In this document: in pieces, positions 35,785 through 57,153 of the stretch
How positions within the stretch are numbered: the stretch's first letter is position 1
Layout of the letters: each line of letters opens with the position of its first letter
Origin: Bacilli bacterium
GTDB taxonomy: Bacteria > Bacillota_I > Bacilli_A > RFN20 > CAG-826
DNA: 64,000 nt
NCBI GenBank assembly: GCA_022653695.1
Contig: JALCSW010000002.1
Coordinates: 436,320 to 500,319, forward strand
Direction: 5' to 3'
Position numbers and translations under genes: made by a program
The notes under the pieces: model-generated
Database searches by the model: none
What the model was told of the DNA's origin: nothing
Seen by the model: the letters and a program-made list of their open reading frames with translations, nothing else

Positions 35785-36372
35785 ATGAGCAACGCAATCG
35801 AGATCGAAGCCAAAGCCTTGGTGAGCCAAAGGGATTACGAAAAACTACTTAGGCGCTTCGCGGGCGAAAAGGCCTACGAGCAAACCAACTATTACATCGA
35901 TAACGGAGAGGGGCTTCTAAGGAAAGAGGGGTTCGCCCTCCGCATCCGGGAAAGGGAGGGGCTTTACGAAATGACCCTCAAAACCCCGTTGAGCGAAGGC
36001 CTTTTGGAAAAGAACTGCGCTTGGAGCAAGGATCGGTTCGACGCGTTCATGCAAAAAGGCGTTTTCCCCGAGGGGGATATCAAACGCTTCCTCACGATGC
36101 TTGACATCGACGTGAGCAAACTGAAGGTTCTGACATCGCTCACCACGAAACGCGTCGACGTCGAATACGAAGGCGGCAAACTCTCGCTCGACGAAAACCA
36201 CTACTCGGGCCACGTCGATTACGAAATCGAGCTTGAGCATAACTCCATGGTAGACGCGACCGAGAAACTGCATTCCCTCTTCATCGAGGAGAAAATCCCG
36301 TTCGTCCTGAACCTCAAAACAAAGGTGGCCCGCGCCCTAAACGCCGTCGGCCAGCAAAAACCTTTGAACTAA
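35785..36372 (+). CDS. CYTH-domain (triphosphate tunnel metalloenzyme, YjbK-like) protein
   Basis: The N-terminal IEIEAKALV (ExExK motif) and overall length are typical of CYTH. Confidence 0.8.
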   Translation: MSNAIEIEAKALVSQRDYEKLLRRFAGEKAYEQTNYYIDNGEGLLRKEGFALRIREREGLYEMTLKTPLSEGLLEKNCAWSKDRFDAFMQKGVFPEGDIKRFLTMLDIDVSKLKVLTSLTTKRVDVEYEGGKLSLDENHYSGHVDYEIELEHNSMVDATEKLHSLFIEEKIPFVLNLKTKVARALNAVGQQKPLN

Positions 36373-36828
36373 AGCCAAAAGCAGTCTAATGTTCCGCTAT
36401 GGACGCTCACAAATTCTCGCGTCTTGAGGAAACCGCTTTTTATCGTTGCAATAGCCGGAATTTTTGATATGTTTCTATTACCCAAAACGCATTTAGTCAA
36501 TGGTTTACACGTTCGTCAAATATTGTCAAAAGTTTATGGATAGCCTTTTTTAGATACACAAGATTCTATGTTAATATCCATGTCGACCTTTTAGAGGCAC
36601 CGCATCAAAGCGCCTTGCATCTTCTTACTCTAGAGAATAATAGGAAAGAATTATATTGTTCGTTGTTGTTCAAAAATCAGTCAGTTTTATTGAATAACGT
36701 TTTCTTAGGACGAAAATGACTTTTCGAATTATGGGCGGTTTTGACTTTGTTTTACGTTTTGAACTGCGTCCGCAAAAAGTTCATGCAATCACCAAACGCT
36801 TCCTATGGGTTTCTTTTCAGAAAAGAAT

Positions 36829-36864
36829 GGAGAACATGACGGAGAACATGACGGAGAACATGAT
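36829..36864 (+). repeat. Tandem repeat, 3 x 12 bp (GGAGAACATGAC)
   Basis: Units at 36829-36840, 36841-36852 and 36853-36864 (last base differs), about 30 nt upstream of the AlbA_2 gene start. Confidence 0.95.
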
Positions 36865-36892
36865 AAAATAAAAAGGCAAAAAGGAGCCTGAA

Positions 36893-38293
36893 ATGAAAAT
36901 ACGATCGCTATTCCCTGAGGTTGATTTTGAAAATGAGGAATTTGAATACAAAGCAAAACTAGAGAATGACAAACAATCCGAGAAATGGGGCAAAACTTTG
37001 GTCGGATACGCAAACGAAAACGGTGGCGAAATGTTCGTAGGGGTATCGAACGATGGAGAGGCGTTTGGACTGAGTTTTGAGGAAATTGACAAATACAGGC
37101 AGCAAATATATCGGGAGAACGACAGACGCATTATTCCTCACATCAAAATAGATATTCAGGTCAAAAGCGTGGATTCGTAAGGGAAGTTGTTTGTCATGTT
37201 GGTCAAGGTCCCACCGGCATCATCGATGGTTTCCTATCGCCGTGGGGACTATTCATCGACATTCTACACAAGAAAATCAGGGGCTTCATTGCCCCCTTCC
37301 GCTGACGACCTGCTGAGAATGGCCAAGAGAAAAAGCGAAACTGATGGGGAAATCACCCAGAACATCTATAAAGCGGACGAATTCTCGCAATATCTTTTGC
37401 TTTGCAGAAGAAACCGCAAAGATCGCATTGCCCCGGACGTCGGCTCCCTTATTTCCAACGAACTGATAACTGAGGACAAAAGGATTAAATATGGGTTTTC
37501 CCTTTTCTCAAACCTATCGAACGATGAGGATTCTTTGGTTTGTTGTAGGCTCTGGAGAGGTCTTAACAAAGGGGCTGATGAGGCAATAGACAAAAAAGAA
37601 TTCAAGGGACCGCTTGGGGAGGGATACGCGTTCGCCTCCGCATTCGTCGCAAGGAATACCAAATCAGGCTTCATCAAACAGAAAAACGGAAGCCGACTTG
37701 ACACATTCTCTTACCCTCCAATAGCCATACGCGAAGCTTTGATAAACGCCATCGCCCATCGGGATTACACGATAGGTGGGACCCAAGTCGATGTTGACAT
37801 CTTTTCCAACAGAATTGAGATCGCGTCGCCTGGCTCTTGGCTTTTAAAAATGGATCCGAAGAAATACAGCCTGGACAAAGTGCCTTCAATAAGGCGAAAT
37901 CCAATAATCTGCAACGCTTTTTCTTTGGCGGGTTTGATGGAAAAATCGGGAAGCGGCTTAAAAAAGATAGCAGCTTCCTATTCGTCTTTCGATGCCGATC
38001 TCCAACCGGCGCTGGAAGCCTTCCCCACTTTTTTCGTAATCACTTTGTACGACCTTCTTTACGATGAAAAACAAGATGTTTCGCTTGTCCCATCGGAAAA
38101 CAAGCAAGAATCAATCGTCATCAACCTTTGCTTAATCGCGCCAAGAACCAGAGGAGAACTTCAAAAAGCCTGTGGTTATAAAAGTCGCTCCATGTTTTAC
38201 GTCCACGTTCTAAAGCCGCTTCTGAAATCAGGCAAAATAGTGATGACGGAACCGACCAAATCGAAGAACCAAAGATACAGCGCAATAAAATAG
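36893..38293 (+). pseudogene. AlbA_2 (Schlafen-like) + HATPase_c_4 + C-terminal wHTH putative regulator, interrupted by an in-frame TAA at 37178-37180
   Basis: ORFs 36893..37180 and 37187..38293 are in the same frame. The AlbA_2 pattern continues across the stop (EFEYKAKLEND...GYANENGGEMFVGVSNDGEAFG...IQVKSVDS*GKLFVMLVKVPP...TFYTRKSGASLP). The HATPase_c_4 motif REALINAIAHRDY follows. About 40% GC. Confidence 0.8.
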
Positions 38294-38899
38294 TTGGTTT
38301 CGAGAATTCATAGTTCGTTTGAATCACGCCATTGAATCAAAAAGCCTTAATGAAAAAGGCCGTTTTCATAAAGCCATGGAGCCTTCTTCGATAAATTACG
38401 AGACTCCGTGCTTTTGGTCAATTGCTTATTACCAGCGATCTTCCCGACCGGCGTTTGCATAGAAAGCGATTCTTGTTTGCCCATAATGCTTTAGAATGCT
38501 AGAATCAGTCAACATAACGATCGTTTTATCCGCAATACTTCTCTTTTTCATTTTTCGGACACTTCTGGCTCATGAATGGTCATCTCGTTTCGTTCTATTG
38601 GTTTCTTCAAAATCTAACTGATATCGAGCCTTTTCAGTTAACAGAATTTTATAATATGCTTCGAAATGGCGTTTATGCCTTCGATTGGCAAACGCGAATT
38701 TGAGATTGTCGCTTAACATCGGATTTTGGCCGTTTGCATTGATTCGCAAAACAATCATAAGAGACGCTTCAGACTTTTACGAGACGCGAGGTTTAGGGAG
38801 CATCCTTCAATTTGGCAATTTCCGCTCACGATCTTAAAATGGCTTACCCACACAAGCACAACGCGCACGAAATGATGCGCGTTGTGCTTTTAGGGAAGC

Positions 38900-39688
38900 T
38901 CAGCGGCGTATCTCGTCGGCTTTCGCCTTGAAATCCTTTTCGTCGATGACGCCCTTTTCGAAAAGCTCTTCGTACGCCAATAGAGTTTCGGCTTTCCGTT
39001 GCTCTTTCTTAATAGAGGGGCGATCGGGGCCAACGATGAGGACAAGTCCCAAGACGAACGTGGCGGCGCTCGCGAGGAGGAAAACCAAATCGTTGACGAA
39101 CACGACCAAATCCAAAGCCAGAACCGCGATGATGGCCCCGAGGCGAAGCGCAATGACAGCCAAACTCAACGAGCAGGACAAGACCTCAAAGATACGCTCA
39201 CGGCCTTGAAGGCAACGCGGATGCAGAAGGGAAGTGGTTCCCAAGGCCAAAACCGAAACGGACAAAAGGATCAGCAAAATCCCATAAGCGATAAAAAACG
39301 CCGAATTGGCAAGGCAAATGGAGGCGATGCCAACAAAGGAAGAGACGCCGCCCGTCACGAGGGCGGAGACGGGGAAGAGGGCCCGTGGGTTGAATTTGCC
39401 ATTGTAAAGATGGATTAAGTTGAAAACGCCGAACGTTATCAGCGCCCCCGCGCCGAAAAGAGAAACCAAACCGACCATTATTCCGATCGGGGAGTTCAGG
39501 GAATCGGTGGCGGAAAAGCACAAAATGGCGAACATGAGAAGGGCTAGTCCGGCGCCGATCGCCGTTATGGCGCTCGCGAGGACAAGGCCGCGTCGCTTGA
39601 AGAGACAGACGCTCTTTTTGCCGGCCGGCTTCTCTTTTTTCGTCGAAACGCCCTTTTCTTCCTTCGGCTCTTTTTTCTTTTCTTCCAT
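38900..39688 (-). CDS. Polytopic membrane protein with C-terminal SHOCT domain
   Basis: ATG at 39686-39688 (MEEKKKEPKEEK...). About 6 TM helices. The C-terminus LLAYEELFEKGVIDEKDFKAKADEIRR matches the SHOCT pattern. Confidence 0.7.
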   Translation of the reverse strand: MEEKKKEPKEEKGVSTKKEKPAGKKSVCLFKRRGLVLASAITAIGAGLALLMFAILCFSATDSLNSPIGIMVGLVSLFGAGALITFGVFNLIHLYNGKFNPRALFPVSALVTGGVSSFVGIASICLANSAFFIAYGILLILLSVSVLALGTTSLLHPRCLQGRERIFEVLSCSLSLAVIALRLGAIIAVLALDLVVFVNDLVFLLASAATFVLGLVLIVGPDRPSIKKEQRKAETLLAYEELFEKGVIDEKDFKAKADEIRR

Positions 39689-39798
39689 TTGCAACAAGCC
39701 CCTTTTCAATGATTTTAGCATCAGAAAGACGAAATGGGCAACGAGAGTCGCGACGCGACGAAAAAGCGCGCCTTTCGGCGCGCCCATCGGTCGTTTTT

Positions 39799-40251
39799 TC
39801 AGCGTTTGATCTTCAGTTCGCCTTTGATATCAAGGCTCGGGGCGCATTTGCCGAAAGTTGGGCAATTCTCCGCGGTGCAGGCCATCTCGGCGATACGGTA
39901 GGCCCGCGGGATGAAGGTTCGGATTTCCTCTTTGTTGTAACCGACTTGGATCCGATGGTCGTCAACGATAATCGGGCGACGCAAAACCGAGGGGTTCTTG
40001 CGGATAAAATCGATCAGCTGACTCACGGTCATGTCATCGAAGTCAATATTGTTCTCCGACACGATTTTACTGCGTGGGGAGATGATGTCATCGGTCCCGT
40101 TCTCCGACTTGGAAATGACTTCCTTGATGTCCTCGACCGAGAGGCCGTTGGAGAAGATATCCTTCTGCTCATACGGGATTTTCTGCTCATCGAACCATTT
40201 TTTGACTTTGCGGCAGCTCGTGCAGCTGGGGGAATAATATATTTTGATCAT
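39799..40251 (-). CDS. spx: Spx/ArsC-family redox regulator with ~20-aa Cys-containing C-terminal extension
   Basis: MIKIYYSPSCTSCRKVKKWFDEQKIPYEQKDIF...LRRPIIVDDHRIQVGYNKEEIRTFIPR. The tail reads AYRIAEMACTAENCPTFGKCAPSLDIKGELKIKR. Confidence 0.85.
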   Translation of the reverse strand: MIKIYYSPSCTSCRKVKKWFDEQKIPYEQKDIFSNGLSVEDIKEVISKSENGTDDIISPRSKIVSENNIDFDDMTVSQLIDFIRKNPSVLRRPIIVDDHRIQVGYNKEEIRTFIPRAYRIAEMACTAENCPTFGKCAPSLDIKGELKIKR

Positions 40252-46464: not shown

Positions 46465-47170
46465 AGAAAAACCTCCTTGTCTGCAACCATCCTTCCGATT
46501 GGGCATTCAGGGAAGCATGACTGTCCACTTAGAGGTTAGCAGTTCAGATCGACTTTATTGTGATGATGGAACTTGGCTTTGATGATATTCCAAGAATCGT
46601 CGACAGGGAGGTGGGCGACAGAAGTGTTTTTTCGGCGCCGTCTATGCAAAAAGGCTAAAGAATTGTGGAAAACCGGCGCCTGTAAACTCTATGCCTCATC
46701 ATCAGCCAGGTTTGGGAACCTAGATGTTTTGGCGTCTTATCTCGAAACCATAAGCGCCATTTAGGGTCTCATAAAGGAACGCGACGAGAAAGAAGGCAAA
46801 CCAGAAAACAAGGTTGCCCTTCCGGATGCTCTGGTCATTTTAACCGGCAGGACTTTGGCCCACAAAGACGGCAACGGGGTTTTCATCGTTCCCATCGGAT
46901 CGTTGCGATAGCGATTGCCGAAAAACGTTCGAACAGGCAATCCGCCGCTCCGAAAAAGAATCTTCGAGCGACGTCTATATGTGTGCTGATGGAGTGCGTA
47001 GTTAATGGCGACAGGCGCAAGCAAGTATCCAAGAAAAATTGGTTTTTGATGATTGATGACATCCTCTTTTCCCTTAAATGAGAAATTTCACGCACCCTCC
47101 GGCGTTTGCGAGGTTAGTCCTTGTCACTGATAAAAGGTTGCATTACAATTGTAGTGCAGGAGGAACCTTT

Positions 47171-47392
47171 ATGTGCGTTTATTCAATCAGACTGACCGAC
47201 AACGAGAAAATCGCGTTAGAAGCCTATTCCAAAGCCAACGGGATCACGATGTCGGAGGCCCTCAAAGGCGCCTTCTTCGATATGCTCGAGGATGAATACG
47301 ACATCAAAGCGGCCGACAAGGCCCTGGCCAAATATCGAGAGAACCCCAAGATTATCCCATCGGATGAAATCTACAAGAAATATGGCGTATAA
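47171..47392 (+). CDS. RelB/DinJ-like (RHH) type II antitoxin
   Basis: GGAGG RBS. 73 aa: MCVYSIRLTDNEKIALEAYSKANGITMSEALKGAFFDMLEDEYDIKAADKAL... Overlaps the toxin gene by 11 nt. Confidence 0.75.
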   Translation: MCVYSIRLTDNEKIALEAYSKANGITMSEALKGAFFDMLEDEYDIKAADKALAKYRENPKIIPSDEIYKKYGV

Positions 47393-47648
47393 GCTTTTTT
47401 TCACGCCAGAAGTCGACAAGAAACTCGAAAAGATGGACGCCGGGGTGCGGAAGATAATCCTAAAATGGCTCAAGAAAAACGTGGACGGATGCAATAACCC
47501 AAAAGCCCATGGAAGAGCATTGAGCGCCAACAGGGCCGGCCAATGGAGATACCGCGTCGGCGACTACCGCGTAATTTGCCTCATCGACGAAGGAAAACTC
47601 ATAGTCACAGCGATAGACATAGGCCATCGAAGAGAAATCTACAAGTAG
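47382..47648 (+). CDS. relE: RelE/ParE-family type II toxin
   Basis: 88 aa: MAYKLFFTPEVDKKLEKMD...LSANRAGQWRYRVGDYRVICLIDEGKLIVTAIDIGHRREIY, the canonical RelE pattern. Confidence 0.85.
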   Translation: MAYKLFFTPEVDKKLEKMDAGVRKIILKWLKKNVDGCNNPKAHGRALSANRAGQWRYRVGDYRVICLIDEGKLIVTAIDIGHRREIYK

Positions 47649-49059: not shown

Positions 49060-50412
49060 TCAGCCCCTTTGATAGACCACGCTTTTTGAAAGCGCATATC
49101 CCTCGGGCACGGCGTTGACTCGGACTATATCGGACATTTGGAATTCCCCGTCTTCGTCCTTGACGGCATAAAAGCGGTAGATCGTCTCGCCGCCGTCAAA
49201 ACTGAAATAACTCGTCTCCTGACGCGAGTAGAAGTCGAAAACGTCGAGGTTCCCGTCTTTGTTGAGACGAACGATGTAATGATGGTCGCCGTTATCGCAG
49301 CAAATATCGTAAGCGTCCAGGAAGTCTTGCTGGTAAAAATAATCGCAAGCCAAGGGGTTCCCGTTATATTCCCCTGAGCAACTGGCGCCCGCGAGCTCAT
49401 CTAGCGTCAGCGTATCCTCGCCGTTTTTGAAGGTCCCTTCATAAGAGGCGGGAACGAAGAAAACGGTGTGGTAGTAAACGCCGGAATAGTCGCCGAAATC
49501 CTGGCAGGAAATATCGGTATAAGAAAGCAAGGAGGCCGCGACCACGACCGGTTCGGCGTAGGCTTCGCCCGTCAAAACCGAATTCGGAAAGGAAGTGACG
49601 ACGCTTTCGACGTAGGAGGACACGACCCCATCACTCACGCCGATGGTGGCGATTTGCGAAACCGAGGCCGAAAAGCCGATTTTCCAATCGTCTTCCGGAA
49701 AAATATCGTAATCATCGAAGAAATCGCTGTAGGAAACCTCTGTTTCAAGATCGAAAGAGAAGGTGAAGGAGGACTCGAAATCCCCCTCCGCTTTTAGCGG
49801 CGCGTCAAGGTAGGGTCCATCCGAAAACAACGACAACGCGAGATCGTTGAAATCCTTGTCTTTGAAATAATGGGAAAGATCGCTTTGGTCGACGTCATCG
49901 TCCACGATACTGCCATAGTACGAATCGCCGTTCAAATGATCGACGCCGACCTCGTAATAATTGTACTCATCATCGTAATAATGAAGTTCCGTGGAGTTTT
50001 CCGTCGCTTCCGTTTTGCCGGAATCGGCGTCGACTTCGGTCGAGGCGATCTCCGAGGAGGACACATAATTGTCGTATATGGTTTTTCGCTCCGTCATCGT
50101 TTTGTCGTAATCGTACCCATCGATATCCTGACCGATGATGGAACCGTAGAAAGAAGAGGAGCCATTGGATTCGTTGACGTAATAAGACGCGAGATGGCTC
50201 GCCTTTGAATCGATATGACTTTTGATTTCCTCGGCGAGCGAGGGTTGGCTTTGGGAAGAGGAGGAAGAGGCCGATTGCATAGAGGAGTCCCCAGCCGAGG
50301 AAGAAGAGGCTGGTTGCATAGAGGAACTCTCCGCTAGGGAAGAGGCCGGATCGCAGGCGCTAAGAACGAACAAAGGGGCGGATAGAAGCAGGATCGAAGC
50401 GATTTTTTTCAT
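49060..50412 (-). CDS. Hypothetical lipoprotein with Ser-rich linker
   Basis: Signal MKKIASILLLSAPLFVLSAC (lipobox LSAC). The linker has the repeated SSMQ(P/S)ASSSS unit. The mature part is acidic and Tyr/Asp-rich. Confidence 0.75.
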   Translation of the reverse strand: MKKIASILLLSAPLFVLSACDPASSLAESSSMQPASSSSAGDSSMQSASSSSSQSQPSLAEEIKSHIDSKASHLASYYVNESNGSSSFYGSIIGQDIDGYDYDKTMTERKTIYDNYVSSSEIASTEVDADSGKTEATENSTELHYYDDEYNYYEVGVDHLNGDSYYGSIVDDDVDQSDLSHYFKDKDFNDLALSLFSDGPYLDAPLKAEGDFESSFTFSFDLETEVSYSDFFDDYDIFPEDDWKIGFSASVSQIATIGVSDGVVSSYVESVVTSFPNSVLTGEAYAEPVVVAASLLSYTDISCQDFGDYSGVYYHTVFFVPASYEGTFKNGEDTLTLDELAGASCSGEYNGNPLACDYFYQQDFLDAYDICCDNGDHHYIVRLNKDGNLDVFDFYSRQETSYFSFDGGETIYRFYAVKDEDGEFQMSDIVRVNAVPEGYALSKSVVYQRG

Positions 50413-50666: not shown

Positions 50667-51185
50667 TCAGTATATGATCCCGGTTTTGTTCGTCGTTAAT
50701 GCGCTGATGGAAATCTTGTCGCTTCCGAAACGAAAACTGACGTTGCCTTTGCCAAACGATAACGTGGTTTCGTCCTGTTTCGCGAAGCCTTCCCCGACCA
50801 TGGTGCCTTCGATTGCTTCTTCTTCCGATTCCAAACTCAGTCCGTATACGAAGATGGCGGGATCGGTTATTTCGATTTTGGTCACCGCCGGGTCGTCCTT
50901 CAAATCCGGATATCCGCTCACGAGATAAGTGACGTGCCTTTCCGGAACGCGCGCGGGGCCGCCAAGGACCGCGTACCTCGAATCCAAATACTCGCTGGCG
51001 CCGAACCATCCCGGAAGATAAGCGCAGTCCTCTAAATCGGCGGCGGAAACCCTCTGCGTGATCCATAGCTCGAGATTGGTGTCGTCGGGCCTGTCGAGGC
51101 GCTGGCCCTGACTGGAGCACCCTCCGAGCGAAAATAGAAGCGCGGACGCCGCTAGGCTAGCCAAAAGCCGCTTTCCGGACGTCAT
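50667..51185 (-). CDS. Hypothetical lipoprotein, third gene of the ECF sigma operon
   Basis: ATG at 51183-51185. Signal MTSGKRLLASLAASALLFSLGGC (lipobox LGGC). Starts 4 nt after the upstream stop. Confidence 0.7.
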   Translation of the reverse strand: MTSGKRLLASLAASALLFSLGGCSSQGQRLDRPDDTNLELWITQRVSAADLEDCAYLPGWFGASEYLDSRYAVLGGPARVPERHVTYLVSGYPDLKDDPAVTKIEITDPAIFVYGLSLESEEEAIEGTMVGEGFAKQDETTLSFGKGNVSFRFGSDKISISALTTNKTGIIY

Positions 51186-51189
51186 AACC

Positions 51190-52707
51190 TTAGGCCCCCG
51201 CATATCCCGGATCGACGATCTCGCCGATGGTCAAAGGAACCGAAACGGAAGAGGAGCCGACCTTGACGAACGGCTGCTCGACGCTGAACAAATAAGGGTG
51301 CGAAAGGCTGAAATCGTAAGGTTTTCCCGGAGGAGTGGGCGCCCCAGGTTCCCCGCCGACGATCGTGGCCGAGCAAGAATGGAACCCGTTGTAGTCGAAG
51401 CTCATAAGGGAATCCTGAATGAGGTATGAGAGGCGAATGGGGCCGATGATCCCCTGCGCCATTTTCTCGTTCAGCCCTCTGCTTGTGGCGTTAGGAAAGG
51501 CCTTCGCGAGGGCTTCGCCATCGAGGGAAATGTCGTTTTCGAGCTTAAAATAAGGAGCCAGGATGGAAACTTCGTATTTCGACGAGGGCTCCCCCGTATC
51601 CTCGTCGACATAACTCATCGGCTCATAGGAGCCGGACAAGGCCGCGCCGAGAATCCCGCTTGGGAGCCCCTCTTCCTCGTCGGGAAGGTAATACGACATG
51701 TCGAGGTTCCTGATCCTCATCTTGGCCATGGTGAAGCCATCGCCCTCATAGACCTTATGGTCGACCGAAACGTCGGCGATGTAATCGACATCGCGTTCGA
51801 CCCCACCTTCAAAATAGGCCATCTTATGCGTCCCCGAATCGTATTGGCTCTTCAAATTTTCTTTCTCGGCGAACCCGTCGACGCAGTAATAGACCGACAT
51901 CGCGGCGGACGCCAAAGGATCCTCATCATTGAGGGCCAAGCGAGGGGTCGGAAAGCCTTTCAGGCCTTCGGAGGCGAGGTAAGCGTTCCCGGAATCGCTG
52001 GTCAGCGCCTCGTTGTATATGGACGCGTCAAAAACGCGGCCAAGCAAGGAATATAGATCCTCGTCCTTTGGGAGCAGATTCACTTTCTTCGGATTGAACC
52101 ACAGGGAGTTCAGGTTGTATCCGCCGGAAAGGTCGCCGTTTTCCTCTTCCTTCAAAGTGCAAAGGGAGGAAACGACCTCGGAAGCCGCCTCCTTAAGCTC
52201 GCTTTCGCCATTTAACCCCATGAAGGAAAGGAAATCCCCCTCGGCCTCGGAAGTCGAGGTGATGGCGGCCAGGGCGAAGCACATGTAGGCGTCGGGGATC
52301 GATACGCCCAGGCTCCTCTCACCGTTCGTTTTAATCGAATTGTCGAAAGCCAAGGCCACGAAGTTCCTAGCGAACGTCCGATAAGAGGCGTAAGTCGTCT
52401 CGGACATCTCCCTTTTCGGGGAGGCGAGGACCTTCTCGGTCGTCGGGGCGACCAGGCGCGATGCCCTTAGGGCCTCGGAAGAAGGCCCGCTTAGCGGGAA
52501 AACGCCGCCTTCATATAAGGAAAGAGCCACTACTCCGACCGCGACCAGCGATCCGACCGGAATGCCGATTTTGACCCATAACGACTTCGGCTTGGCGGAT
52601 GGTTTTTCGAATTTCTCGTAGTTTATTCTTCCTTCGATGTCGGAGAAAGGCAGCCTTTTTTTGGCCCTTTTCTCGATTTCCTTCTCAAATACGTCCTTAT
52701 TTACCAT
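51190..52707 (-). CDS. Single-pass membrane protein with extracytoplasmic serpin-like domain; positional anti-sigma factor
   Basis: ATG at 52705-52707 with an AAGAGGAAA RBS, overlapping the sigma gene stop by 11 nt. About 45 cytoplasmic residues, then TM segment WVKIGIPVGSLVAVGVVALSLY. The remaining ~430 aa follow the serpin pattern (SLGVSIPDAYMCFALAAITSTSEAEGDFLSFMGL, MAKMRIRNLDMSYYLPDEE, YEVSILAPYFKLE, and the C-terminal DFSLSHPYLFSVEQ...PLTIGEIVDP). Confidence 0.6.
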   Translation of the reverse strand: MVNKDVFEKEIEKRAKKRLPFSDIEGRINYEKFEKPSAKPKSLWVKIGIPVGSLVAVGVVALSLYEGGVFPLSGPSSEALRASRLVAPTTEKVLASPKREMSETTYASYRTFARNFVALAFDNSIKTNGERSLGVSIPDAYMCFALAAITSTSEAEGDFLSFMGLNGESELKEAASEVVSSLCTLKEEENGDLSGGYNLNSLWFNPKKVNLLPKDEDLYSLLGRVFDASIYNEALTSDSGNAYLASEGLKGFPTPRLALNDEDPLASAAMSVYYCVDGFAEKENLKSQYDSGTHKMAYFEGGVERDVDYIADVSVDHKVYEGDGFTMAKMRIRNLDMSYYLPDEEEGLPSGILGAALSGSYEPMSYVDEDTGEPSSKYEVSILAPYFKLENDISLDGEALAKAFPNATSRGLNEKMAQGIIGPIRLSYLIQDSLMSFDYNGFHSCSATIVGGEPGAPTPPGKPYDFSLSHPYLFSVEQPFVKVGSSSVSVPLTIGEIVDPGYAGA

Positions 52708-53239
52708 ACCGTTTTCCTCTTTTCGATTGCCTGAATTTCCTTTTGGCCCTTTGGTAGACCATCCTCGCGGCGTCCTCCGTGATGCTGAGTTTCTTTCCGA
52801 TTTCGGCAAAGGCAAGGCCCTCGACGGCGCGAAGAAGCACGATGCGCGTCGCTTCTTCGGAAAGGACGGCCCGGAGATCGTTCACAAACTCATGGTAGAT
52901 AAGGGACCCATCTTGAGGCGACGCGTCTCCGTATTCCTCAATTGAATCGGTGAAAGCGATCCTTCTGTCCTTGCCTAGACGGTTTAAGGCCATGTTCTTA
53001 GCCGTTGAGACGAGATAATACTTGATTGAGCCCCTCACTTCTTCGGCATGGGAGAAGAAGGCCAAAAAAGCATCGTTGGTGACGTCTTTCATGTCCTCCT
53101 CGTCTTTGAGGTAACGCGAGACGCTGAAAAAGACGAGTTTCGCGTAGGCGCCGTAAATTTCCCCAAAAACCGCTTTGATTTTCTCCTGGTCCCCGCTCTG
53201 GAGCGCCTTGGAGAGAAGCGCCTCATAGCTTTGACCCAT
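52697..53239 (-). CDS. ECF-type sigma-70 family RNA polymerase sigma factor
   Basis: ATG at 53237-53239 with an AAGGAGAA RBS. Region 2 reads YAKLVFFSVSRYLKDEEDMKDVTNDAFLAFF. The region 4 HTH reads EGLAFAEIGKKLSITEDAARMVYQRAKRKF. Confidence 0.85.
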   Translation of the reverse strand: MGQSYEALLSKALQSGDQEKIKAVFGEIYGAYAKLVFFSVSRYLKDEEDMKDVTNDAFLAFFSHAEEVRGSIKYYLVSTAKNMALNRLGKDRRIAFTDSIEEYGDASPQDGSLIYHEFVNDLRAVLSEEATRIVLLRAVEGLAFAEIGKKLSITEDAARMVYQRAKRKFRQSKRGKRYGK

Positions 53240-53404
53240 GAGAAGTTCTCCTTTCTTCTCGCCTACATTCAATAAGACAATCGAAACGCGCGAAAGCGAA
53301 CAATTATTATTAATAATCGAGCAAAGTCATGGCAAATGGAAGCCTTCGCCGCAAAAAACCGCCGCTCATCGACGGCTTTCGTCTCCCGTAGAGAAGAATC
53401 GGCT

Positions 53405-53665
53405 TCAGCGTTTCCTTAAAAACGAGAACGGGCCTTTTCTCGCGTATTCCCGTTTTTCCACGTCAAGCACGCGATACCCTTCCTTTTCCACCGTTTCTTT
53501 GAGCTGAGCCAGATCGACGCCGTCTTCCGCGATGACGGTCGCCTCGTTCTTATAATGGTCGGCTTTGGCCTTCTTGACCTTCGCGACTTTCGAAAGCGAT
53601 TCCTCGACATGGCACTCGCACATGCCGCATTTCATCCCTTCGATCGATAGATGTATTTCCAACAT
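53405..53665 (-). CDS. Heavy-metal-associated (HMA) domain metallochaperone, CopZ-like
   Basis: 86 aa with a GMKCGMCECHV (MxCxxC) motif and ferredoxin-like fold length. Confidence 0.8.
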   Translation of the reverse strand: MLEIHLSIEGMKCGMCECHVEESLSKVAKVKKAKADHYKNEATVIAEDGVDLAQLKETVEKEGYRVLDVEKREYARKGPFSFLRKR

Positions 53666-53688
53666 AGGGCAACTCCTTTGGCTTAACT

Positions 53689-53706
53689 GGTTAGTTCTGC
53701 CTAACC
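53689..53706. promoter_or_regulatory. GGTTAG-N6-CTAACC palindrome (copy 1), upstream of the HMA gene
   Basis: GGTTAGttctgcCTAACC, a perfect 6+6 inverted repeat 24 nt upstream of the HMA gene ATG. Confidence 0.6.
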
Positions 53707-53790
53707 ATTATTATTCTATTCTGACCAAAGCCTTCTTTTCAACCCAAAAGAAAAAGTGGGCCTCTCGGTCCGTCCCAACCATAAACGCCC

Positions 53791-54168
53791 TCACTTGACC
53801 TTTTCGTCGAAATGCTTTTTGAGGGCGGCGTAGGTCTCGGGGCTAAGGATATGCTCGATGTGGCAGGCGTCCTTGAAAGCGATGTCCTTAGGAACCCCAA
53901 GCGCCACGAACAAATCCCCAACCAAATTGTGCCGCTCATAGATTTCGCTCGCCTTTTTCCGCCCCGCTTCCGTCAGCACCAATTCGTCGCGAGGCCCGAA
54001 AGAAAGGTAACCGCCTTCCTTAAGTTTCTTCATCGCCACCGAAATGCTGGGTTTGCTGTAGCCAAAGGAGTTGGCCAAGTCAACCGAATGGACCAAGTCC
54101 CGGCCCTTTTCGCCTTCGAGCATCAGGATCCTCTCGAGATAATCTTCGCTGCTTTCGTTCGATTCCAT
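53791..54168 (-). CDS. DtxR/MntR-family metal-dependent transcriptional regulator
   Basis: SEDYLERILMLEGEKGRDLVHSVDLANSFGYSKPSISVAMKKLKEGGYL...IYERHNLVGDLF...HIEH. Confidence 0.85.
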   Translation of the reverse strand: MESNESSEDYLERILMLEGEKGRDLVHSVDLANSFGYSKPSISVAMKKLKEGGYLSFGPRDELVLTEAGRKKASEIYERHNLVGDLFVALGVPKDIAFKDACHIEHILSPETYAALKKHFDEKVK

Positions 54169-54230
54169 AAAGCGCCTCTTTGCGTGCCTTTATTATTATA
54201 GTCCGTCTTTAGGGGCTTGACCATAAACGC

Positions 54231-54248
54231 GGTTATCTATAACTAACC
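54231..54248. promoter_or_regulatory. GGTTAT-N6-CTAACC palindrome (copy 2, one mismatch), upstream of the DtxR-family gene
   Basis: GGTTATctataaCTAACC in the dtxR-like / feoA divergent region. Confidence 0.5.
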
Positions 54249-54288
54249 AAAAAGAAAGGAACGGACCGCGGGCGATTCCAAAATGTTG

Positions 54289-54340
54289 TTGACATTAAAG
54301 TTAGTCACGTCTAACATCAACACGGTTAGTTAATGCTAAC
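54289..54340 (+). promoter_or_regulatory. Candidate feoA promoter overlapped by two GTTAG-N6-CTAAC palindromes (copies 3 and 4)
   Basis: TTGACA (54289-54294), 17-nt spacer, TAACAT (54312-54317). Palindromes are GTTAGtcacgtCTAAC (54300-54315) and GTTAGttaatgCTAAC (54325-54340). An AGGAGG RBS follows. Confidence 0.6.
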
Positions 54341-54353
54341 AGGAGGATAAACG

Positions 54354-54569
54354 ATGCCACTGCCAGTAGCGCCGCAAGGCCAGACGTTCACCATCAGAAA
54401 GCTCCTCGTCCGGGATCTCAAAACCAAAAAGCACTTGGAAAGCCTTGGGTTGGTCGCGCATCAGCCCATCAAGGTGATGAGCCAAGGGAAAGAGGGGACG
54501 GTGATTTTGGTCAACGAAACGCGGCTCGCGCTCGACATAAGCACCGCCTCCTCGGTTTTCGTCGAATGA
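54354..54569 (+). CDS. feoA: FeoA-family protein
   Basis: 71-aa SH3-like FeoA pattern (FTIRKLLVRD...LESLGLVAHQPIKVMSQ...VILVNETRLAL). Confidence 0.85.
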   Translation: MPLPVAPQGQTFTIRKLLVRDLKTKKHLESLGLVAHQPIKVMSQGKEGTVILVNETRLALDISTASSVFVE

Positions 54570-54589
54570 AAGGAAAGGCATAAAACGTC

Positions 54590-54886
54590 ATGAAAGAAAA
54601 AGACGATGCGACCGAATGCGTCTCGCCGGGCGGGGAAATCGCTCTGGGCGAGGCCGCGATCGGCTCAAGCGGGACGATCGTTCGGGTCCGCGGGGAAGGC
54701 AAGCTCAGGAGACGGCTCTTCGACATGGGCCTGACCCCCGGGGCCGACCTCTATCTGAGAAAGAGGGCTCCGCTAGGCGACCCCCTCGAAATCACCATCA
54801 GGGGCTATGAGCTCACGCTCCGGCGCAGCGAGGCGATGAACGTCCTCGTCAGGATCTCCGCCAAGGAAAGCGAGAACGGAAAATGA
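54590..54886 (+). CDS. feoA: Second FeoA-family protein
   Basis: GTIVRVRGEGKLRRRLFDMGLTPGADLYLRKRAPLGDPLEITIRGYELTLRRSEA. Confidence 0.85.
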   Translation: MKEKDDATECVSPGGEIALGEAAIGSSGTIVRVRGEGKLRRRLFDMGLTPGADLYLRKRAPLGDPLEITIRGYELTLRRSEAMNVLVRISAKESENGK

Positions 54887-57153
54887 AAAAGGAAAACGGA
54901 ATCACCATCGCGTTGGCCGGAAACCCCAATTCCGGGAAAACGACCCTCTTCAATTCTCTGACGGGCAGCACCGCCTACGTCGGCAACTGGCCGGGCGTAA
55001 CCGTCGAAAAACGAGAAGGGGTCTACAGAAACAAACGCATCGGCGAAGCGAGGATCGTCGATCTGCCGGGTATCTATTCGCTATCGCCATACAGTCCCGA
55101 AGAAGTCATTTCTCGGAACTATATCCTTCAAAGCCATCCCGACGTCGTCATCGACGTCATCGACGCGACGAACCTTGAGCGCAACCTCTATATGACGACT
55201 CAGATCCTTGAGATGGATGTCCCGGTCGTCCTCGCCCTTAACATGAGCGACGCCTTGGAGGCAAGCGGCCAGTCGATCGACGCCAAGGCCCTCGGCAGGA
55301 AGCTGGGGGTCCCGGTCGTTTTGGTTTCCGCTTTGCGGGAACGCAACCTCGACAATCTCATGGCGGAGGCTTTCATTGCCTCAAGAAAGCCGCGCAAAGG
55401 CGTCTCGCTATGGGACCAAGGCCCCCTGAAACCCATCATCGAGAAAGCGGAGGCGATATACGGGAAGTCGCTGAAAGAAAACGCCCTTTTCCACGCCATC
55501 AAGGCCCTAGAGGGCGACGAAATCGAGCTGAAGGAGAATAACCGCGAATGCCAAGAGGCCCAAACCCTTTACGAAGATAAAGAGGGTTTTGAAGCCACAA
55601 GCGCGGACGAGCGGTACAAATACATCGTGAGCCAGTTGGCGCCTTGCCGCAAAGGCCAAACGAAAAGCGAGGCCAAAAAGCTTACCAAAAGCGACAAGAT
55701 CGACAAAGTGCTGACCAGCAAAATCTGGGGAATCCCCATCATGCTGGCTTTGCTCTTCATCATTTTCCACGTGACTTTCGCCGGTGATCTGTTCTATCTG
55801 AAAGCCATGGGCGTCAACTTCGGAGACGGATACCAAGGCCTCATTCACTTCAAGGTGGACGGCGAGGAGTTCTATCCCTTCGCCGGCCTGTTCTACGACA
55901 GCGATGGCATCGCCTCGATAGGCGAATTCTTCCACCGCCTGTTCGGCGACGACGGATCCGGCCTCTTCGGCTGCATAACCCAAGGCATTCACGTTGGGCT
56001 CGTCGGCGCCGGCGCTCCCGCCTGGGTCGACGGCATTATCTGCAGCGGCATCTGCTCCGGCGTCTTCGCCGTCCTCGGATTCGTTCCGCAAATCATGATC
56101 CTCTTCTTGTTCTTCGCCATTCTGGAGGACTCCGGCTATATGGCGCGCATCGCCTTCATGCTCGATCGCATCTTCAGGAGATTCGGCGTGTCCGGACGGG
56201 CTTTCATTCCTATGATCATGGGTTTCGGATGCGGGATCCCCGCCATGATCAACACCCGCACCCTCTCCAGCGACAAAGAGAGGACCAAGACGATCCGCGT
56301 CATCCCCTTCTTCGCCTGCGGGGCCAAAGCCACTTTCTTGGCCGTCGTCGCCGACGCGGTCGCCCATGCGGCCGGAATGGACGGCGGACTCTTCACTTTC
56401 TCCATGTACCTGCTCGGGATCGTCGTGGCCATCGCCGCCGTCATCGTCATGAACAAGACAAGCCAACGAGAGAAAGTCCCGCCTTTCGTCATGGAACTGC
56501 CGGCCTATCACATGCCGCAACCTAGCGCCCTGGCGATCCACGTTTGGGACAAAGGCAAGCACTTCATCAAAAAAGCCTCGACCATCATCTTGGCTTCCAC
56601 GATCATCATTTGGTTCCTCGCCAGTTTCAACTGGGACTGGCAGATGGTCGACGAGACGGGAACGAGCATCCTAAACGATTTGGGAAAACTCATCCAGCCT
56701 CTCTTCACCCCCATGGGCTTCGGCGTTCAGGCCGGCACGAACGGCTGGACTCTCGCCGTCGCCTCCATCCAAGGCATGGTAGCCAAGGAAAACGTGACTT
56801 CGACAGTCGAGGCTCTGGCCGCCATCATCGGCGCGGATTCCTTCGAGGCCATCATCCAGTCGTGCGGGGTTTCCACGGGAGGCGTCGTGGCCTTCGCGGT
56901 GTTCAACCTCATGACGATCCCCTGCTTCGCCTCGGTGGCGACCGCCAAAGCCGAGCTCCCGAACCGCAAATCCTACGTTTGGACGATCCTCTTCTGGCTC
57001 GGCCTCAGTTATGTCCTTGGCTGTCTGACCTACATCACGATCGACTACGTCTGGACCTTGGGCATCACGTTGCCTCTCTTAGGGTTGGGGGTTCTCGCCC
57101 TTTATCTCTACGACCGCAAAAAGAGCGGGCGGGAAGCCAAGGCAGTCGCTTAA
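54883..57153 (+). CDS. feoB: Ferrous iron transporter FeoB
   Basis: G-domain GNPNSGKTTLFNSLTG, then a polytopic membrane domain. 756 aa; overlaps the upstream stop by 4 nt. Confidence 0.95.
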   Translation: MKKENGITIALAGNPNSGKTTLFNSLTGSTAYVGNWPGVTVEKREGVYRNKRIGEARIVDLPGIYSLSPYSPEEVISRNYILQSHPDVVIDVIDATNLERNLYMTTQILEMDVPVVLALNMSDALEASGQSIDAKALGRKLGVPVVLVSALRERNLDNLMAEAFIASRKPRKGVSLWDQGPLKPIIEKAEAIYGKSLKENALFHAIKALEGDEIELKENNRECQEAQTLYEDKEGFEATSADERYKYIVSQLAPCRKGQTKSEAKKLTKSDKIDKVLTSKIWGIPIMLALLFIIFHVTFAGDLFYLKAMGVNFGDGYQGLIHFKVDGEEFYPFAGLFYDSDGIASIGEFFHRLFGDDGSGLFGCITQGIHVGLVGAGAPAWVDGIICSGICSGVFAVLGFVPQIMILFLFFAILEDSGYMARIAFMLDRIFRRFGVSGRAFIPMIMGFGCGIPAMINTRTLSSDKERTKTIRVIPFFACGAKATFLAVVADAVAHAAGMDGGLFTFSMYLLGIVVAIAAVIVMNKTSQREKVPPFVMELPAYHMPQPSALAIHVWDKGKHFIKKASTIILASTIIIWFLASFNWDWQMVDETGTSILNDLGKLIQPLFTPMGFGVQAGTNGWTLAVASIQGMVAKENVTSTVEALAAIIGADSFEAIIQSCGVSTGGVVAFAVFNLMTIPCFASVATAKAELPNRKSYVWTILFWLGLSYVLGCLTYITIDYVWTLGITLPLLGLGVLALYLYDRKKSGREAKAVA

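Follow-up and report, generated by a model that had tools for sequence, protein, structure and literature searches.

A sigma factor gene of the ECF family overlapping a gene for a putative anti-sigma factor with a serpin-fold ectodomain

The window analysed here (the whole 64-kb stretch of DNA) comes from a gut or rumen bacterium that pairs a stress-type sigma factor with a serpin-bearing membrane partner. This arrangement raises the question of whether a serpin on the outside of the cell can serve as the sensor of an anti-sigma factor, and, if so, whether the signal that frees the sigma factor is a protease.

Layout of the sigma operon

The operon and its flanks contain the following features:

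53361..53376, minus strand: terminator-like hairpin with a T-run (consensus scan only)
53273..53302, minus strand: candidate ECF-type promoter, TGTTCG-N18-GTCTTA (single match in the 64-kb window)
52697..53239, minus strand: gene for an ECF (group 4) sigma-70 family factor, 180 aa (Pfam and NCBIfam matches)
51190..52707, minus strand: gene for a putative anti-sigma factor with a serpin ectodomain, 505 aa (start overlapping the sigma stop by 11 nt)
50667..51185, minus strand: lipoprotein gene, 172 aa, or 178 aa if the alternative ATG (51203) is the start, lipobox LFSLGGC

The sigma gene extends from its ATG at 53239 to the TAA at 52699-52697 and is preceded by the ribosome-binding site AAAGGAG. 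Its product was matched in Pfam by Sigma70_r2 (2.3e-9), Sigma70_r4_2 (1.9e-6) and Sigma70_ECF (3.6e-6) and by TIGR02937 with 57.5 bits, above the cut-off, and no region 3 match was found in the 180-aa protein with Pfam or NCBIfam. Membership of the ECF group (group 4) is defined by the presence of regions 2 and 4, the absence of regions 3 and 1.1 and a length of about 160-200 aa, and by domains and length the protein belongs to this group. The 505-aa gene starts with the ATG at 52707-52705, just 3' of AAGAGGAAA, and ends at 51190. The 11-nt overlap with the sigma stop and the separate ribosome-binding site, both described in the original prediction, proved exact when the coordinates were re-read, and the two genes are translationally coupled.

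In the candidate promoter, a -10-like GTCTTAT lies about 35 nt 5' of the sigma ATG. The complete pattern, expected 0.03 times by chance, occurs once in the 64-kb window, and no further convincing copy of the ECF-type promoter was found there. At every related locus a homologous block, T[GT]AGC[AG]-N16-19-GTC[AT]TA, is located 22-24 nt 5' of the sigma ATG, and within 435 kb of loci it was found only 5' of the sigma gene or of an adjacent lipoprotein gene. This conserved two-block motif is a candidate promoter through which the sigma factor may regulate its own synthesis. The terminator-like hairpin may close the upstream HMA-domain gene and so separate it from the operon.

The lipoprotein gene begins (ATG 51185) 4 nt past the stop of the 505-aa gene, as first read, or overlaps it by 14 nt if the alternative ATG at 51203 is used. 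Its 172-aa product had no family match in Pfam, NCBIfam or the PDB, and its single-sequence AlphaFold2 (AF2) model was unusable (pLDDT 34.5). With a homologue in only two of the 17 genome loci (L001 and L003), it was rejected as a core component and regarded as an accessory gene. A 450-aa lipoprotein (49060-50412), which has its own sigma-70-like promoter and no family match and occurs at L001 only, was also rejected as a part of the system. In rumen loci, lipoprotein paralogues of about 310 aa have the same promoter as the sigma gene; they matched no Pfam family and showed no similarity to the lipoproteins of the window.

The cytoplasmic head and its linkage to the sigma gene

The N-terminal part of the 505-aa protein was divided into two features:

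52579..52707, minus strand: cytoplasmic head, residues 1-43, putative sigma-binding module (K/R-rich, predicted helical)
52510..52578, minus strand: single transmembrane helix, residues ~44-66, WVKIGIPVGSLVAVGVVALSLY (hydropathy and model)

These boundaries, taken from hydropathy and AF2, agree with the short cytoplasmic N-terminus and one transmembrane helix that had been predicted. The head is lysine-rich, with 12 K/R among its 43 residues, and the hydropathy maximum (2.07) falls at residues 47-65. In the AF2 model a helix spans residues 53-66, and two further helices, both of low confidence, are placed in the head (2-15 and 21-26). These predictions strongly support a protein that crosses the membrane once, N-in, with a positive-inside head and a serpin-fold ectodomain, and the predicted order of an N-terminal cytoplasmic domain followed by one helix is the topology of an anti-sigma factor. 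No known anti-sigma domain (class I, zinc-binding or not, RskA, FecR or DUF4179) was matched in the whole protein at E<=1 in Pfam or NCBIfam, and alignment with the heads of partners that accompany the same sigma family and bear other ectodomains identified the head as a family-specific module.

Gene neighbourhoods were compared from both sides of the pair. A sigma gene lies directly 5' at 24 of 24 loci whose serpin-fold relatives are membrane-anchored by head and helix. It was found upstream of none of the lipoprotein-form relatives, which lack the cytoplasmic head (0/5 loci with at least 1.4 kb upstream and 0/2 more with about 400 nt). On the sigma side, a single-sequence search gave only five relatives and profile A3 retrieved 459 proteins; wherever the neighbours of the latter were looked up, the sigma gene was followed by a partner with the same head, in an overlapping or abutting frame. 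The ectodomains carried on this head include an A1-type serpin (L052), Pfam-positive serpins at L050 (1.4e-8) and L055 (7e-31, with the hinge KGVEAAATTV) and, beside the same sigma family, non-serpin domains (L054, L056, L057 and L058). In these comparisons the ~43-aa head and the helix form a module that always accompanies this sigma family, regardless of which ectodomain it bears. The head thus behaves as a sigma-linked module, and sigma binding is its putative function.

The same evidence bears on a plainer explanation, namely that the 505-aa protein is an ordinary membrane-anchored protease inhibitor in a sigma-controlled operon, with the head and helix as its anchor and the sigma factor regulated otherwise. 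The head is just ~43 aa long and Pfam and NCBIfam detected no known anti-sigma domain, as this explanation would have it. An anchor, however, does not account for the conservation of the head across partners with unrelated ectodomains, nor for its position: the adjacency expected of an anti-sigma gene is found here as the 11-nt overlap, and head genes overlap or abut the sigma gene at all 24 loci and in every sigma-first look-up, while the lipoprotein-anchored paralogues never occur with one. Moreover, one-helix proteins encoded beside the sigma gene are the commonest type of putative anti-sigma factor (82 ECF groups; PMC7826278). We therefore regard the plain inhibitor as highly improbable.

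The serpin fold and its reactive-centre loop

Three features were placed in the extracytoplasmic part of the protein:

51208..52407, minus strand: extracytoplasmic serpin-fold domain, residues ~101-500 (AF2, Foldseek, family profile)
51358..51387, minus strand: reactive-centre loop hinge, residues 441-450, GFHSCSATIV, positions P15-P6 (near-invariant columns)
51319..51357, minus strand: exposed hypervariable stretch of the same loop, residues 451-463, GGEPGAPTPPGKP (column entropy, pLDDT)

An outside domain of ~430 aa following the serpin pattern had been predicted, and a PF00079 search and a fold prediction had been proposed as checks. The two checks gave different answers: the serpin assignment held by family profile, AF2 and Foldseek, but at the sequence level the resemblance is weak. 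PF00079 did not match the 505-aa protein even at E<=1 in Pfam, NCBIfam gave no serpin match either, and the sole PDB sequence match was Serpin48 (E 0.7) over the loop region. A PF00079 search taken alone would thus have wrongly refuted the assignment, because the window protein has no Pfam match. Among its 47 homologues, 12 matched PF00079 (best 1.6e-7), and the family profile matched AtSerpin1 with E 2e-5 over residues 42-391 of 393. The hhalign comparison of A1 with the PF00079-positive partner of L055 gave a probability of 98.6%, with the head/helix module within the alignment. The AF2 model reached a pLDDT of 83.9 (mostly >90 across the serpin domain) and a pTM of 0.81, and when it was searched against the PDB with Foldseek the top 50 matches were all serpins (best E 4.6e-19, TM ~0.64-0.73 on target); miropin (5ncs) was among the best structural and profile matches. 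The serpin fold is characterised by three sheets and some 8-9 helices, with the reactive-centre loop exposed between s5A and s1C, and the ectodomain as modelled is a divergent serpin.

The protein ends with NGFHSCSATIVGGEPGAPTPPGKPYDFSLSHPYLFSVEQ...PLTIGEIVDPGYAGA, and the reading of this end as hinge and reactive-centre loop was borne out, both in its letters and in the alignment of its columns with the AtSerpin1 hinge (GTEAAAAS). The hinge columns are nearly invariant (entropy ~0-1.3 bits over the 47 homologues). They are followed by 13 hypervariable residues (451-463), with column entropies of 1.9-3.4 bits (the mean over the domain is 1.6), and then by a conserved F.L.LDHPY.FEV block. Residues 446-457, between strands 429-438 and 462-467, have pLDDT <50 and are predicted to be exposed and disordered. 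Since no proline occurs between P15 and P3, insertion of the loop as a strand would be sterically possible. From P17 to P9 the inhibitory hinge consensus reads E-x-G-T-E-A-A-A-A, its P14 and P12-P9 residues being small (PMC8233489). The corresponding window residues, Y-N-G-F-H-S-C-S-A, keep the P15 Gly and small residues at P12, P10 and P9 and deviate at P17, P14 (Phe) and P13. Insertion of the loop might be slowed or prevented by the bulky Phe at P14 and by Tyr/His at P13. The predicted P1 residue is Gly, which is unusual for a specificity residue, and a near-invariant Cys occupies P11 of this extracytoplasmic loop. The lipoprotein-anchored paralogues have the same hinge as the window subfamily, and the canonical consensus was found in the sigma-coupled relatives L055, P0250 and P0272.

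Serpins without inhibitory activity, such as the hormone carriers and the collagen chaperone HSP47, bind ligands. It is accordingly conceivable that the sigma/anti-sigma pair is genuine and its serpin-fold ectodomain non-inhibitory, sensing the redox state or a ligand such as a peptide, glycan or small molecule. The atypical hinge residues P17, P14 and P13, the lack of a PF00079 match in the window protein and the P11 Cys, with its possible redox or covalent role, all speak for this alternative. A hypervariable post-hinge stretch between conserved strands is, however, the pattern of a protease bait and not of a ligand pocket, and small residues are retained at the inward-facing positions P12, P10 and P8 (S, S and T). 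Furthermore, close relatives within the sigma family carry a canonical hinge on the same head (L055), and the lipoprotein paralogues retain the hinge, as is expected of free-standing inhibitors such as miropin. A non-inhibitory sensor was thus judged unlikely.

The pairing is not confined to this head. Serpin relatives were drawn from a library of 1.8 billion proteins, and the closest were mostly N-in membrane forms: the 150 best family hits included 123 full-length representatives, 82 of them of this form. Every N-in serpin that could be examined in its context has an ECF sigma gene next to it. Where the N-in head is of another type, the gene for a canonical serpin overlaps a preceding gene for a different ECF sigma factor by 4-17 nt; these cases include clostridial cases (L060/L061 and L063), with hinges such as EEGTEAAAYT or EEGVAAAAYT, and P0191 in L064 with a third type of head. 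The gene order at L062 is serpin-sigma-serpin. The pairing is real and recurs in many Firmicutes, and these comparisons indicate that serpins were recruited to ECF sigma lineages at least twice. The original prediction knew of no described serpin-type anti-sigma factor, and our literature search likewise found no paper on such a protein or on a sigma-serpin arrangement. The main text of the ECF classification paper, where serpin-fused partners were to be looked up, does not mention serpins. The architecture is thus apparently new to the literature.

Proposed circuit and known systems

Our main reading is that the locus encodes an ECF sigma/anti-sigma pair that regulates its own expression, that the anti-sigma factor senses the outside through a serpin, and that the circuit runs from protease through loop to release; as a whole it is given a probability of about 0.6. 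Its parts are not equally secure. A sigma/anti-sigma pair with a serpin sensor is very probable, a protease is somewhat favoured as the signal, and cleavage of the loop itself as the trigger is put forward tentatively. Release of the sigma factor by protease attack on the bait loop, which was the inference first drawn from this locus, is plausible.

In the proposed circuit, the head would hold the sigma factor inactive at the membrane until a protease outside the cell, of host origin or made by other gut or rumen microbes, engages the exposed hypervariable loop. Cleavage of the loop, together with the shift of the serpin from stressed to relaxed or its covalent trapping of the protease, would open the anti-sigma factor to regulated proteolysis; as with other anti-sigma factors of Firmicutes, a site-1 cut would come first and a site-2 protease would then act within the membrane. 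The freed sigma factor would then transcribe its own operon, and the circuit may also turn on a few neighbouring surface lipoprotein genes. Because the serpin would be spent in a single encounter, the inhibitor would be replaced at the rate at which it is consumed.

The protease might instead be sensed in the disordered juxtamembrane linker, where a cut by any external protease would set off degradation of the anti-sigma factor, with the serpin as a local shield, so that the sigma factor is let out only when the protease load exceeds the capacity of the inhibitor. The linker between helix and serpin is indeed predicted to be disordered (pLDDT <50 at residues 64-72 and ~62 overall for 71-80), and in the 550-aa relatives it grows to about 60-100 low-complexity residues rich in P/G/S/T. 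For RseA and RsiW, site-2 proteases usually gain access once the bulky ectodomain has been removed. However, the non-serpin partners of the same sigma family share such linkers, so the linker alone fails to explain why serpins were recruited at least twice; it is also compatible with our main reading and not exclusive of it. Sensing by the linker in place of the loop was judged improbable.

In its boldest form, the main reading makes the reactive loop a covalent bait receptor: an external protease that is captured by it or cleaves it would drive the serpin irreversibly from stressed to relaxed, and this change would license intramembrane proteolysis of the anti-sigma factor, in at least two ECF lineages. 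This form is possible but doubtful. If it is true, a suicide inhibitor would double as effector and sensor, a new class of bacterial transmembrane signalling, and would provide a self-replenishing anti-protease shield widespread in gut and rumen Firmicutes. The role of bacterial serpins has been called "enigmatic", and prokaryotes have been said to lack the proteolytic signalling networks of eukaryotic serpins (PMC8233489). The sigma-serpin pairing, which is not an isolated case, ties serpins directly to a transcription switch and adds a new type of sensor domain to the ECF family. It also gives a testable hypothesis for the sensing of host or microbial proteases by Firmicutes of gut and rumen, and genetic switches that respond to proteases might be built from it. 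It further suggests that a fresh look for sigma coupling is worthwhile in characterised gut serpins under consideration for inflammatory bowel disease, the siropins among them.

Several known systems resemble parts of this circuit. In the RsiV/sigma-V system of Bacillus subtilis, Enterococcus faecalis and Clostridioides difficile, lysozyme binds the ectodomain and induces stepwise proteolysis of the anti-sigma factor, and the output protects against lysozyme. As proposed here, a Firmicutes ECF sigma factor shares its transcript with an anti-sigma factor that crosses the membrane once and begins with a short cytoplasmic head. The ectodomain of RsiV, however, is DUF4179/DUF3298 and binds lysozyme non-covalently, whereas a serpin is found here, with a protease as the proposed ligand and a suicide-substrate receptor as its proposed mode; no RsiV-type similarity was detected in the 505-aa protein with Pfam or NCBIfam. 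RseA/sigma-E and RsiW/sigma-W likewise have single-pass anti-sigma factors, from which the ectodomain is removed before site-2 and cytoplasmic proteases free the sigma factor, and by analogy a cascade of this type is the likely downstream route. They differ in their dedicated site-1 proteases, which answer misfolded proteins or membrane stress, and in their cytoplasmic class I anti-sigma domains of ~80-90 aa, which were not detected in the 505-aa protein. BlaR1 and MecR1 are transmembrane sensors in which a covalent acyl-enzyme event outside the cell is reported to the cytoplasm and the matching resistance gene is induced. The proposed circuit would be analogous in signalling an outside covalent event across the membrane to induce a matching resistance, but there is no homology and the proposed roles are reversed, since BlaR1 itself acts as the enzyme and its ligand as the suicide substrate.

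Among serpins, miropin of Tannerella forsythia, the Bifidobacterium longum serpin and the siropins of Eubacterium siraeum are likewise serpin-fold proteins located outside the cells of gut or oral anaerobes, and the lipoprotein-anchored paralogues of the window protein recall surface-anchored bacterial serpins. These known serpins have canonical hinges, whereas the window protein has the hinge GFHSCSAT together with a cytoplasmic head and a transmembrane helix; sigma coupling was not mentioned for them in the literature examined. The closest circuit logic is that of Bifidobacterium breve, whose serpin operon is induced by proteases via a two-component system, according to the citing article (Alvarez-Martin 2012, cited in PMC8012564). 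As summarised there, external proteases raise serpin expression, which is the same logic as the autoregulation proposed here. In B. breve, on that account, a separate histidine kinase and response regulator carry the signal, whereas in our locus the inhibitor itself is the proposed receptor and the ECF sigma factor the transducer.

Operon layout and neighbouring genes

All genes of the operon were located on the minus strand, with the following features in and around it:

53376-53361, minus: terminator-like hairpin, which closes the HMA-domain gene upstream of the sigma gene
53239-52697, minus: ECF-type sigma factor gene (180 aa; ATG 53239, stop 52699-52697; RBS AAAGGAG)
52707-51190, minus: gene of the 505-aa protein (ATG at 52707, preceded by AAGAGGAAA)
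51185-50667, minus: lipoprotein gene (172 aa; ATG 51185; lipobox LFSLGGC)
49060-50412, minus: 450-aa lipoprotein gene, with a sigma-70-like promoter at 50467-50439
53405-57153: metal-homeostasis cluster adjoining the operon (HMA-domain and DtxR-type iron-dependent repressor genes, minus; FeoA/FeoB, plus)
47168-47648, plus: DUF6290 antitoxin-like gene (E 2e-19) overlapping a ParE-family toxin gene (E 2e-14)

The 180-aa product matched Sigma70_r2, Sigma70_r4_2 and Sigma70_ECF in Pfam and TIGR02937 above cut-off, and by sequence is an ECF-type sigma factor. Both predicted junctions were found as described: the sigma stop overlaps the next gene, which has its own RBS, by 11 nt, and the lipoprotein gene starts 4 nt past the stop of the 505-aa gene (an alternative ATG at 51203 would give an overlap of 14 nt). 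The UW_MP_BACIL4_1 contig ('MAG: Bacilli bacterium isolate') is 99% identical to the window at the protein level.

Several neighbours were considered as parts of the system and rejected. The 172-aa lipoprotein, which has no recognisable family in Pfam, NCBIfam or the PDB, is conserved in only two of the compared loci (L001 and L003). The 450-aa lipoprotein has its own promoter and was found only in L001; it combines a Ser-rich repeated N-terminal region (SSMQPASSSSAGDSSMQSASSSS) with an acidic, aromatic-rich body, and a Pfam and NCBIfam scan gave no match. The flanking genes (HMA-domain, DtxR-type repressor, FeoA/FeoB, DUF1295, DUF6290/ParE) are unrelated; the DUF6290/ParE genes, some 3.5 kb away from the operon, make up a type II toxin-antitoxin pair. 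A second small ORF (54354-54569) lies just upstream of FeoA/FeoB. The G+C content drops to 0.445-0.484 at 36001-40000, compared with about 0.55-0.60 in the rest of the window, so this segment may have been acquired.

Serpin fold and reactive-centre loop of the 505-aa protein

Residues 1-43 of the 505-aa protein (the head) contain 12 Lys/Arg, and residues about 44-66 (WVKIGIPVGSLVAVGVVALSLY) are its sole strongly hydrophobic stretch. An N-in topology with about 440 residues outside is therefore predicted, in agreement with the short cytoplasmic N-terminus and single TM helix proposed originally.

On its own sequence, the serpin call for this protein is weak: the Pfam scan returned no family even at E<=1, and the sole PDB sequence match was Serpin48 (E 0.7, in the right region). 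The PF00079 search suggested in the original prediction thus failed for the protein itself but succeeded for 12 of its 47 homologues, every one of which came from metagenomes or MAGs. The profile of the 47 homologues (A1) matched Arabidopsis AtSerpin1 in the PDB (E 2e-5, residues 42-391 of 393) as far as the C-terminal G-x-V-x-P motif. Fold prediction bore out the proposed serpin ectodomain. The AlphaFold2 model built with A1 as input reached pLDDT 83.9 and pTM 0.81 (above pLDDT 90 for most of residues 80-440 and 460-500), and its best 50 Foldseek matches in the PDB were all serpins (TM 0.64-0.73 on the target), including tengpin (4.6e-19), Serpin48, alpha-1-antitrypsin, miropin and antithrombin. 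Once relatives are included, the serpin call is firm.

In the model, a strand at 429-438 (s5A) is followed by residues 446-457 with pLDDT <50 and by strands at 462-467, 472-483 and 486-497; this predicted order is what a native serpin shows when its loop is exposed. Over the 47 homologues, the hinge F-D/N-Y-D/N-G-F-Y-S-C-S-V/A-T-I is near-invariant (column entropy about 0), the 13 positions after it are the most variable of the domain (1.9-3.4 bits; domain mean 1.6), and the following F.L.L(D/N)HPY.FEV block is again conserved. A constant hinge with a hypervariable bait behind it is the classical hallmark of serpins. Cys445 (51373-51375), at P11 of the hinge (GFYSCS) in the extracytoplasmic loop, is strongly conserved, with Ala, Ser or Gly in a few family members; the protein has three further cysteines (143, 183, 275).

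The hinge of the window protein is atypical. Compared with the inhibitory consensus ExGTEAAAA at P17-P9 (PMC8233489), it reads Y-N-G-F-H-S-C-S-A, retaining Gly at P15 and small side chains at P12, P10 and P8, which face inward, with Phe at P14 and, where most relatives carry Tyr, His at P13. This odd hinge favours an alternative in which the serpin fold is non-inhibitory and senses another ligand, a reading that still stands. Numbered from P15, the loop has no proline until P2, and its proline-rich part (APTPPGKP) occupies primed positions, similar to alpha-1-antitrypsin; this leaves strand insertion possible, yet not assured. Paralogues anchored by a lipoprotein signal peptide share the hinge and loop pattern of the head-bearing forms, which shows that the domain also serves a purpose other than signalling, most simply protease binding.

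Head module and spread of the serpin-sigma pairing

Members of the family carry either the cytoplasmic head plus helix, as in the window, or the lipoprotein signal peptide. Among 49 loci drawn from genome and metagenome collections, a sigma homologue lies directly upstream, with frames overlapping or abutting, in 24/24 head-plus-helix loci. It was found in none of the five lipoprotein-form loci that have 1.4 kb or more of sequence upstream, nor in two further ones with only about 400 nt. A search with the sigma-factor profile (A3) gave 459 relatives, seven of which were inspected in context:

L052: partner is an A1-type serpin
L050: partner is a Pfam-positive serpin (1.4e-8)
L055: partner is a Pfam-positive serpin (7e-31) with the canonical hinge KGVEAAATTV
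L054, L056, L057, L058: partners have unrelated ectodomains (239-599 aa)

The head and helix (M.F.KKMKKRI..L..VKNPY.K..FPLWAK.AIP) are common to all seven partners, and the head of the window protein aligns to this motif; hhalign of A1 against the L055 partner gave a probability of 98.6% (E 1e-15) with the head within the alignment. The head and helix are thus the sole constant companion of this sigma family, with an exchangeable outside domain, which is how modular anti-sigma factors behave. A Pfam and NCBIfam scan of the 505-aa protein found no known anti-sigma domain family; the most frequent putative anti-sigma factors in the ECF classification are one-helix proteins encoded beside the sigma gene (82 groups; PMC7826278). 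The 505-aa protein could still be a plain anchored inhibitor within a sigma-controlled operon, although the modular head speaks against this.

In the non-serpin branch (L054:3992-7495, L056:846-3849, L057:1855-4858), where the partners (239-333 aa) carry this head and helix too, the partner gene is consistently followed by DAGK_cat/YegS, acyltransferase and choline-kinase genes, a hint of a lipid- or choline-related output there.

When A1 was run with HMMER against the full set of 1.84 billion representative proteins, it retrieved 591 relatives at E<=1e-3, including 52 at E<=1e-30. The N-termini of the 123 full-length proteins among the best 150 were typed.

N-terminal types of the 123 full-length proteins
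A4-type head: 22
Another cytoplasmic head (at least 25 aa) plus helix: 60
Signal peptide or lipoprotein form: 37
N-terminal hydrophobic segment not detected: 4

About half of the 60 other-head proteins have a clostridial head motif (…A[IL]G.IDD..IEEA…), and canonical hinges (EEGTEAAAYT and EEGCEAAAYT, for example) are common among the 60; two of the clostridial type are annotated at NCBI as 'serpin family protein' in Oscillospiraceae/Ruminococcaceae MAGs. Five proteins were inspected in context, one on a contig too short to show neighbours (L059). An ECF sigma gene lies directly upstream of the serpin, overlapping by 4-17 nt, in three cases (L060/L061, L063 and L064). In the clostridial locus L062 (1015-4570), the gene of a 179-aa ECF sigma stands between those of a 497-aa serpin, which comes first, and a 500-aa serpin; one sigma gene is thus flanked by two serpin partners, both with an N-in head and a canonical hinge. 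Identity between the clostridial sigma factors and that of the window is only about 26%; serpins have therefore become coupled to at least two ECF lineages.

Promoter, proposed circuit and known systems

The motif T[GT]AGC[AG]-N16-19-GTC[AT]TA sits 22-24 nt before the ATG of every sigma gene in the family. Its strict form occurs in only two kinds of place on both strands of 435 kb of loci: upstream of the sigma gene and, in four rumen loci, upstream of the adjacent ~310-aa lipoprotein gene. The window carries a variant:

53302-53273, minus: TGTTCG-N18-GTCTTA, the sole match in 64 kb (0.03 expected by chance)

With its GTC, the -10 block is similar to the CGTC-type -10 element of many ECF promoters, and we infer that this sigma factor uses the promoter. 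The conserved motif before the sigma gene and adjacent lipoprotein genes suggests autoregulation, together with a small regulon made up of surface proteins. In the rumen clade, the sigma gene is immediately preceded by two to three tandem paralogous ~310-aa lipoprotein genes without a Pfam family (L011:1965-5001, L012:3369-5372, L014:2010-4996, L016:3389-5372). In each of these loci, one or more of them has TGAGCG-N-GTCTTA ahead of it, the same promoter as that of the sigma gene, and they are therefore probable regulon members.

The analysis establishes a translationally coupled gene pair, a conserved promoter, a sigma-linked head module, a partner predicted to cross the membrane once (N-in) whose ectodomain has the serpin fold, and a loop that is hypervariable and exposed. 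In the proposed circuit, the head would sequester the sigma factor until a protease engages the reactive loop; cleavage, the stressed-to-relaxed change or a covalent complex would then open the anti-sigma factor to stepwise proteolysis, and the sigma factor would transcribe its own operon. Since one encounter consumes a serpin, the circuit would tie consumption to resynthesis. Another reading that stands is that a disordered linker does the sensing, with the serpin as a threshold-setting shield. If the bait-loop mechanism is true, it would be a new signalling principle.

The original prediction knew of no described serpin-type anti-sigma factor, and full-text searches of the open-access literature likewise found no paper linking serpins to anti-sigma or ECF factors. 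Serpins are unmentioned in the main text of the ECF reclassification paper, as is any connection to sigma factors in the siropin paper. The serpin would thus be a new sensor domain on an ECF anti-sigma factor, with an earlier description outside the open-access literature possible. Bifidobacterium breve has a serpin operon that is induced by proteases (PMC8012564), a precedent for the proposed logic, although the transducer there is a two-component system. The functionally nearest system is RsiV/sigma-V, in which the anti-sigma ectodomain binds a host enzyme, and structurally the 505-aa protein is nearest to miropin-like surface-anchored bacterial serpins.
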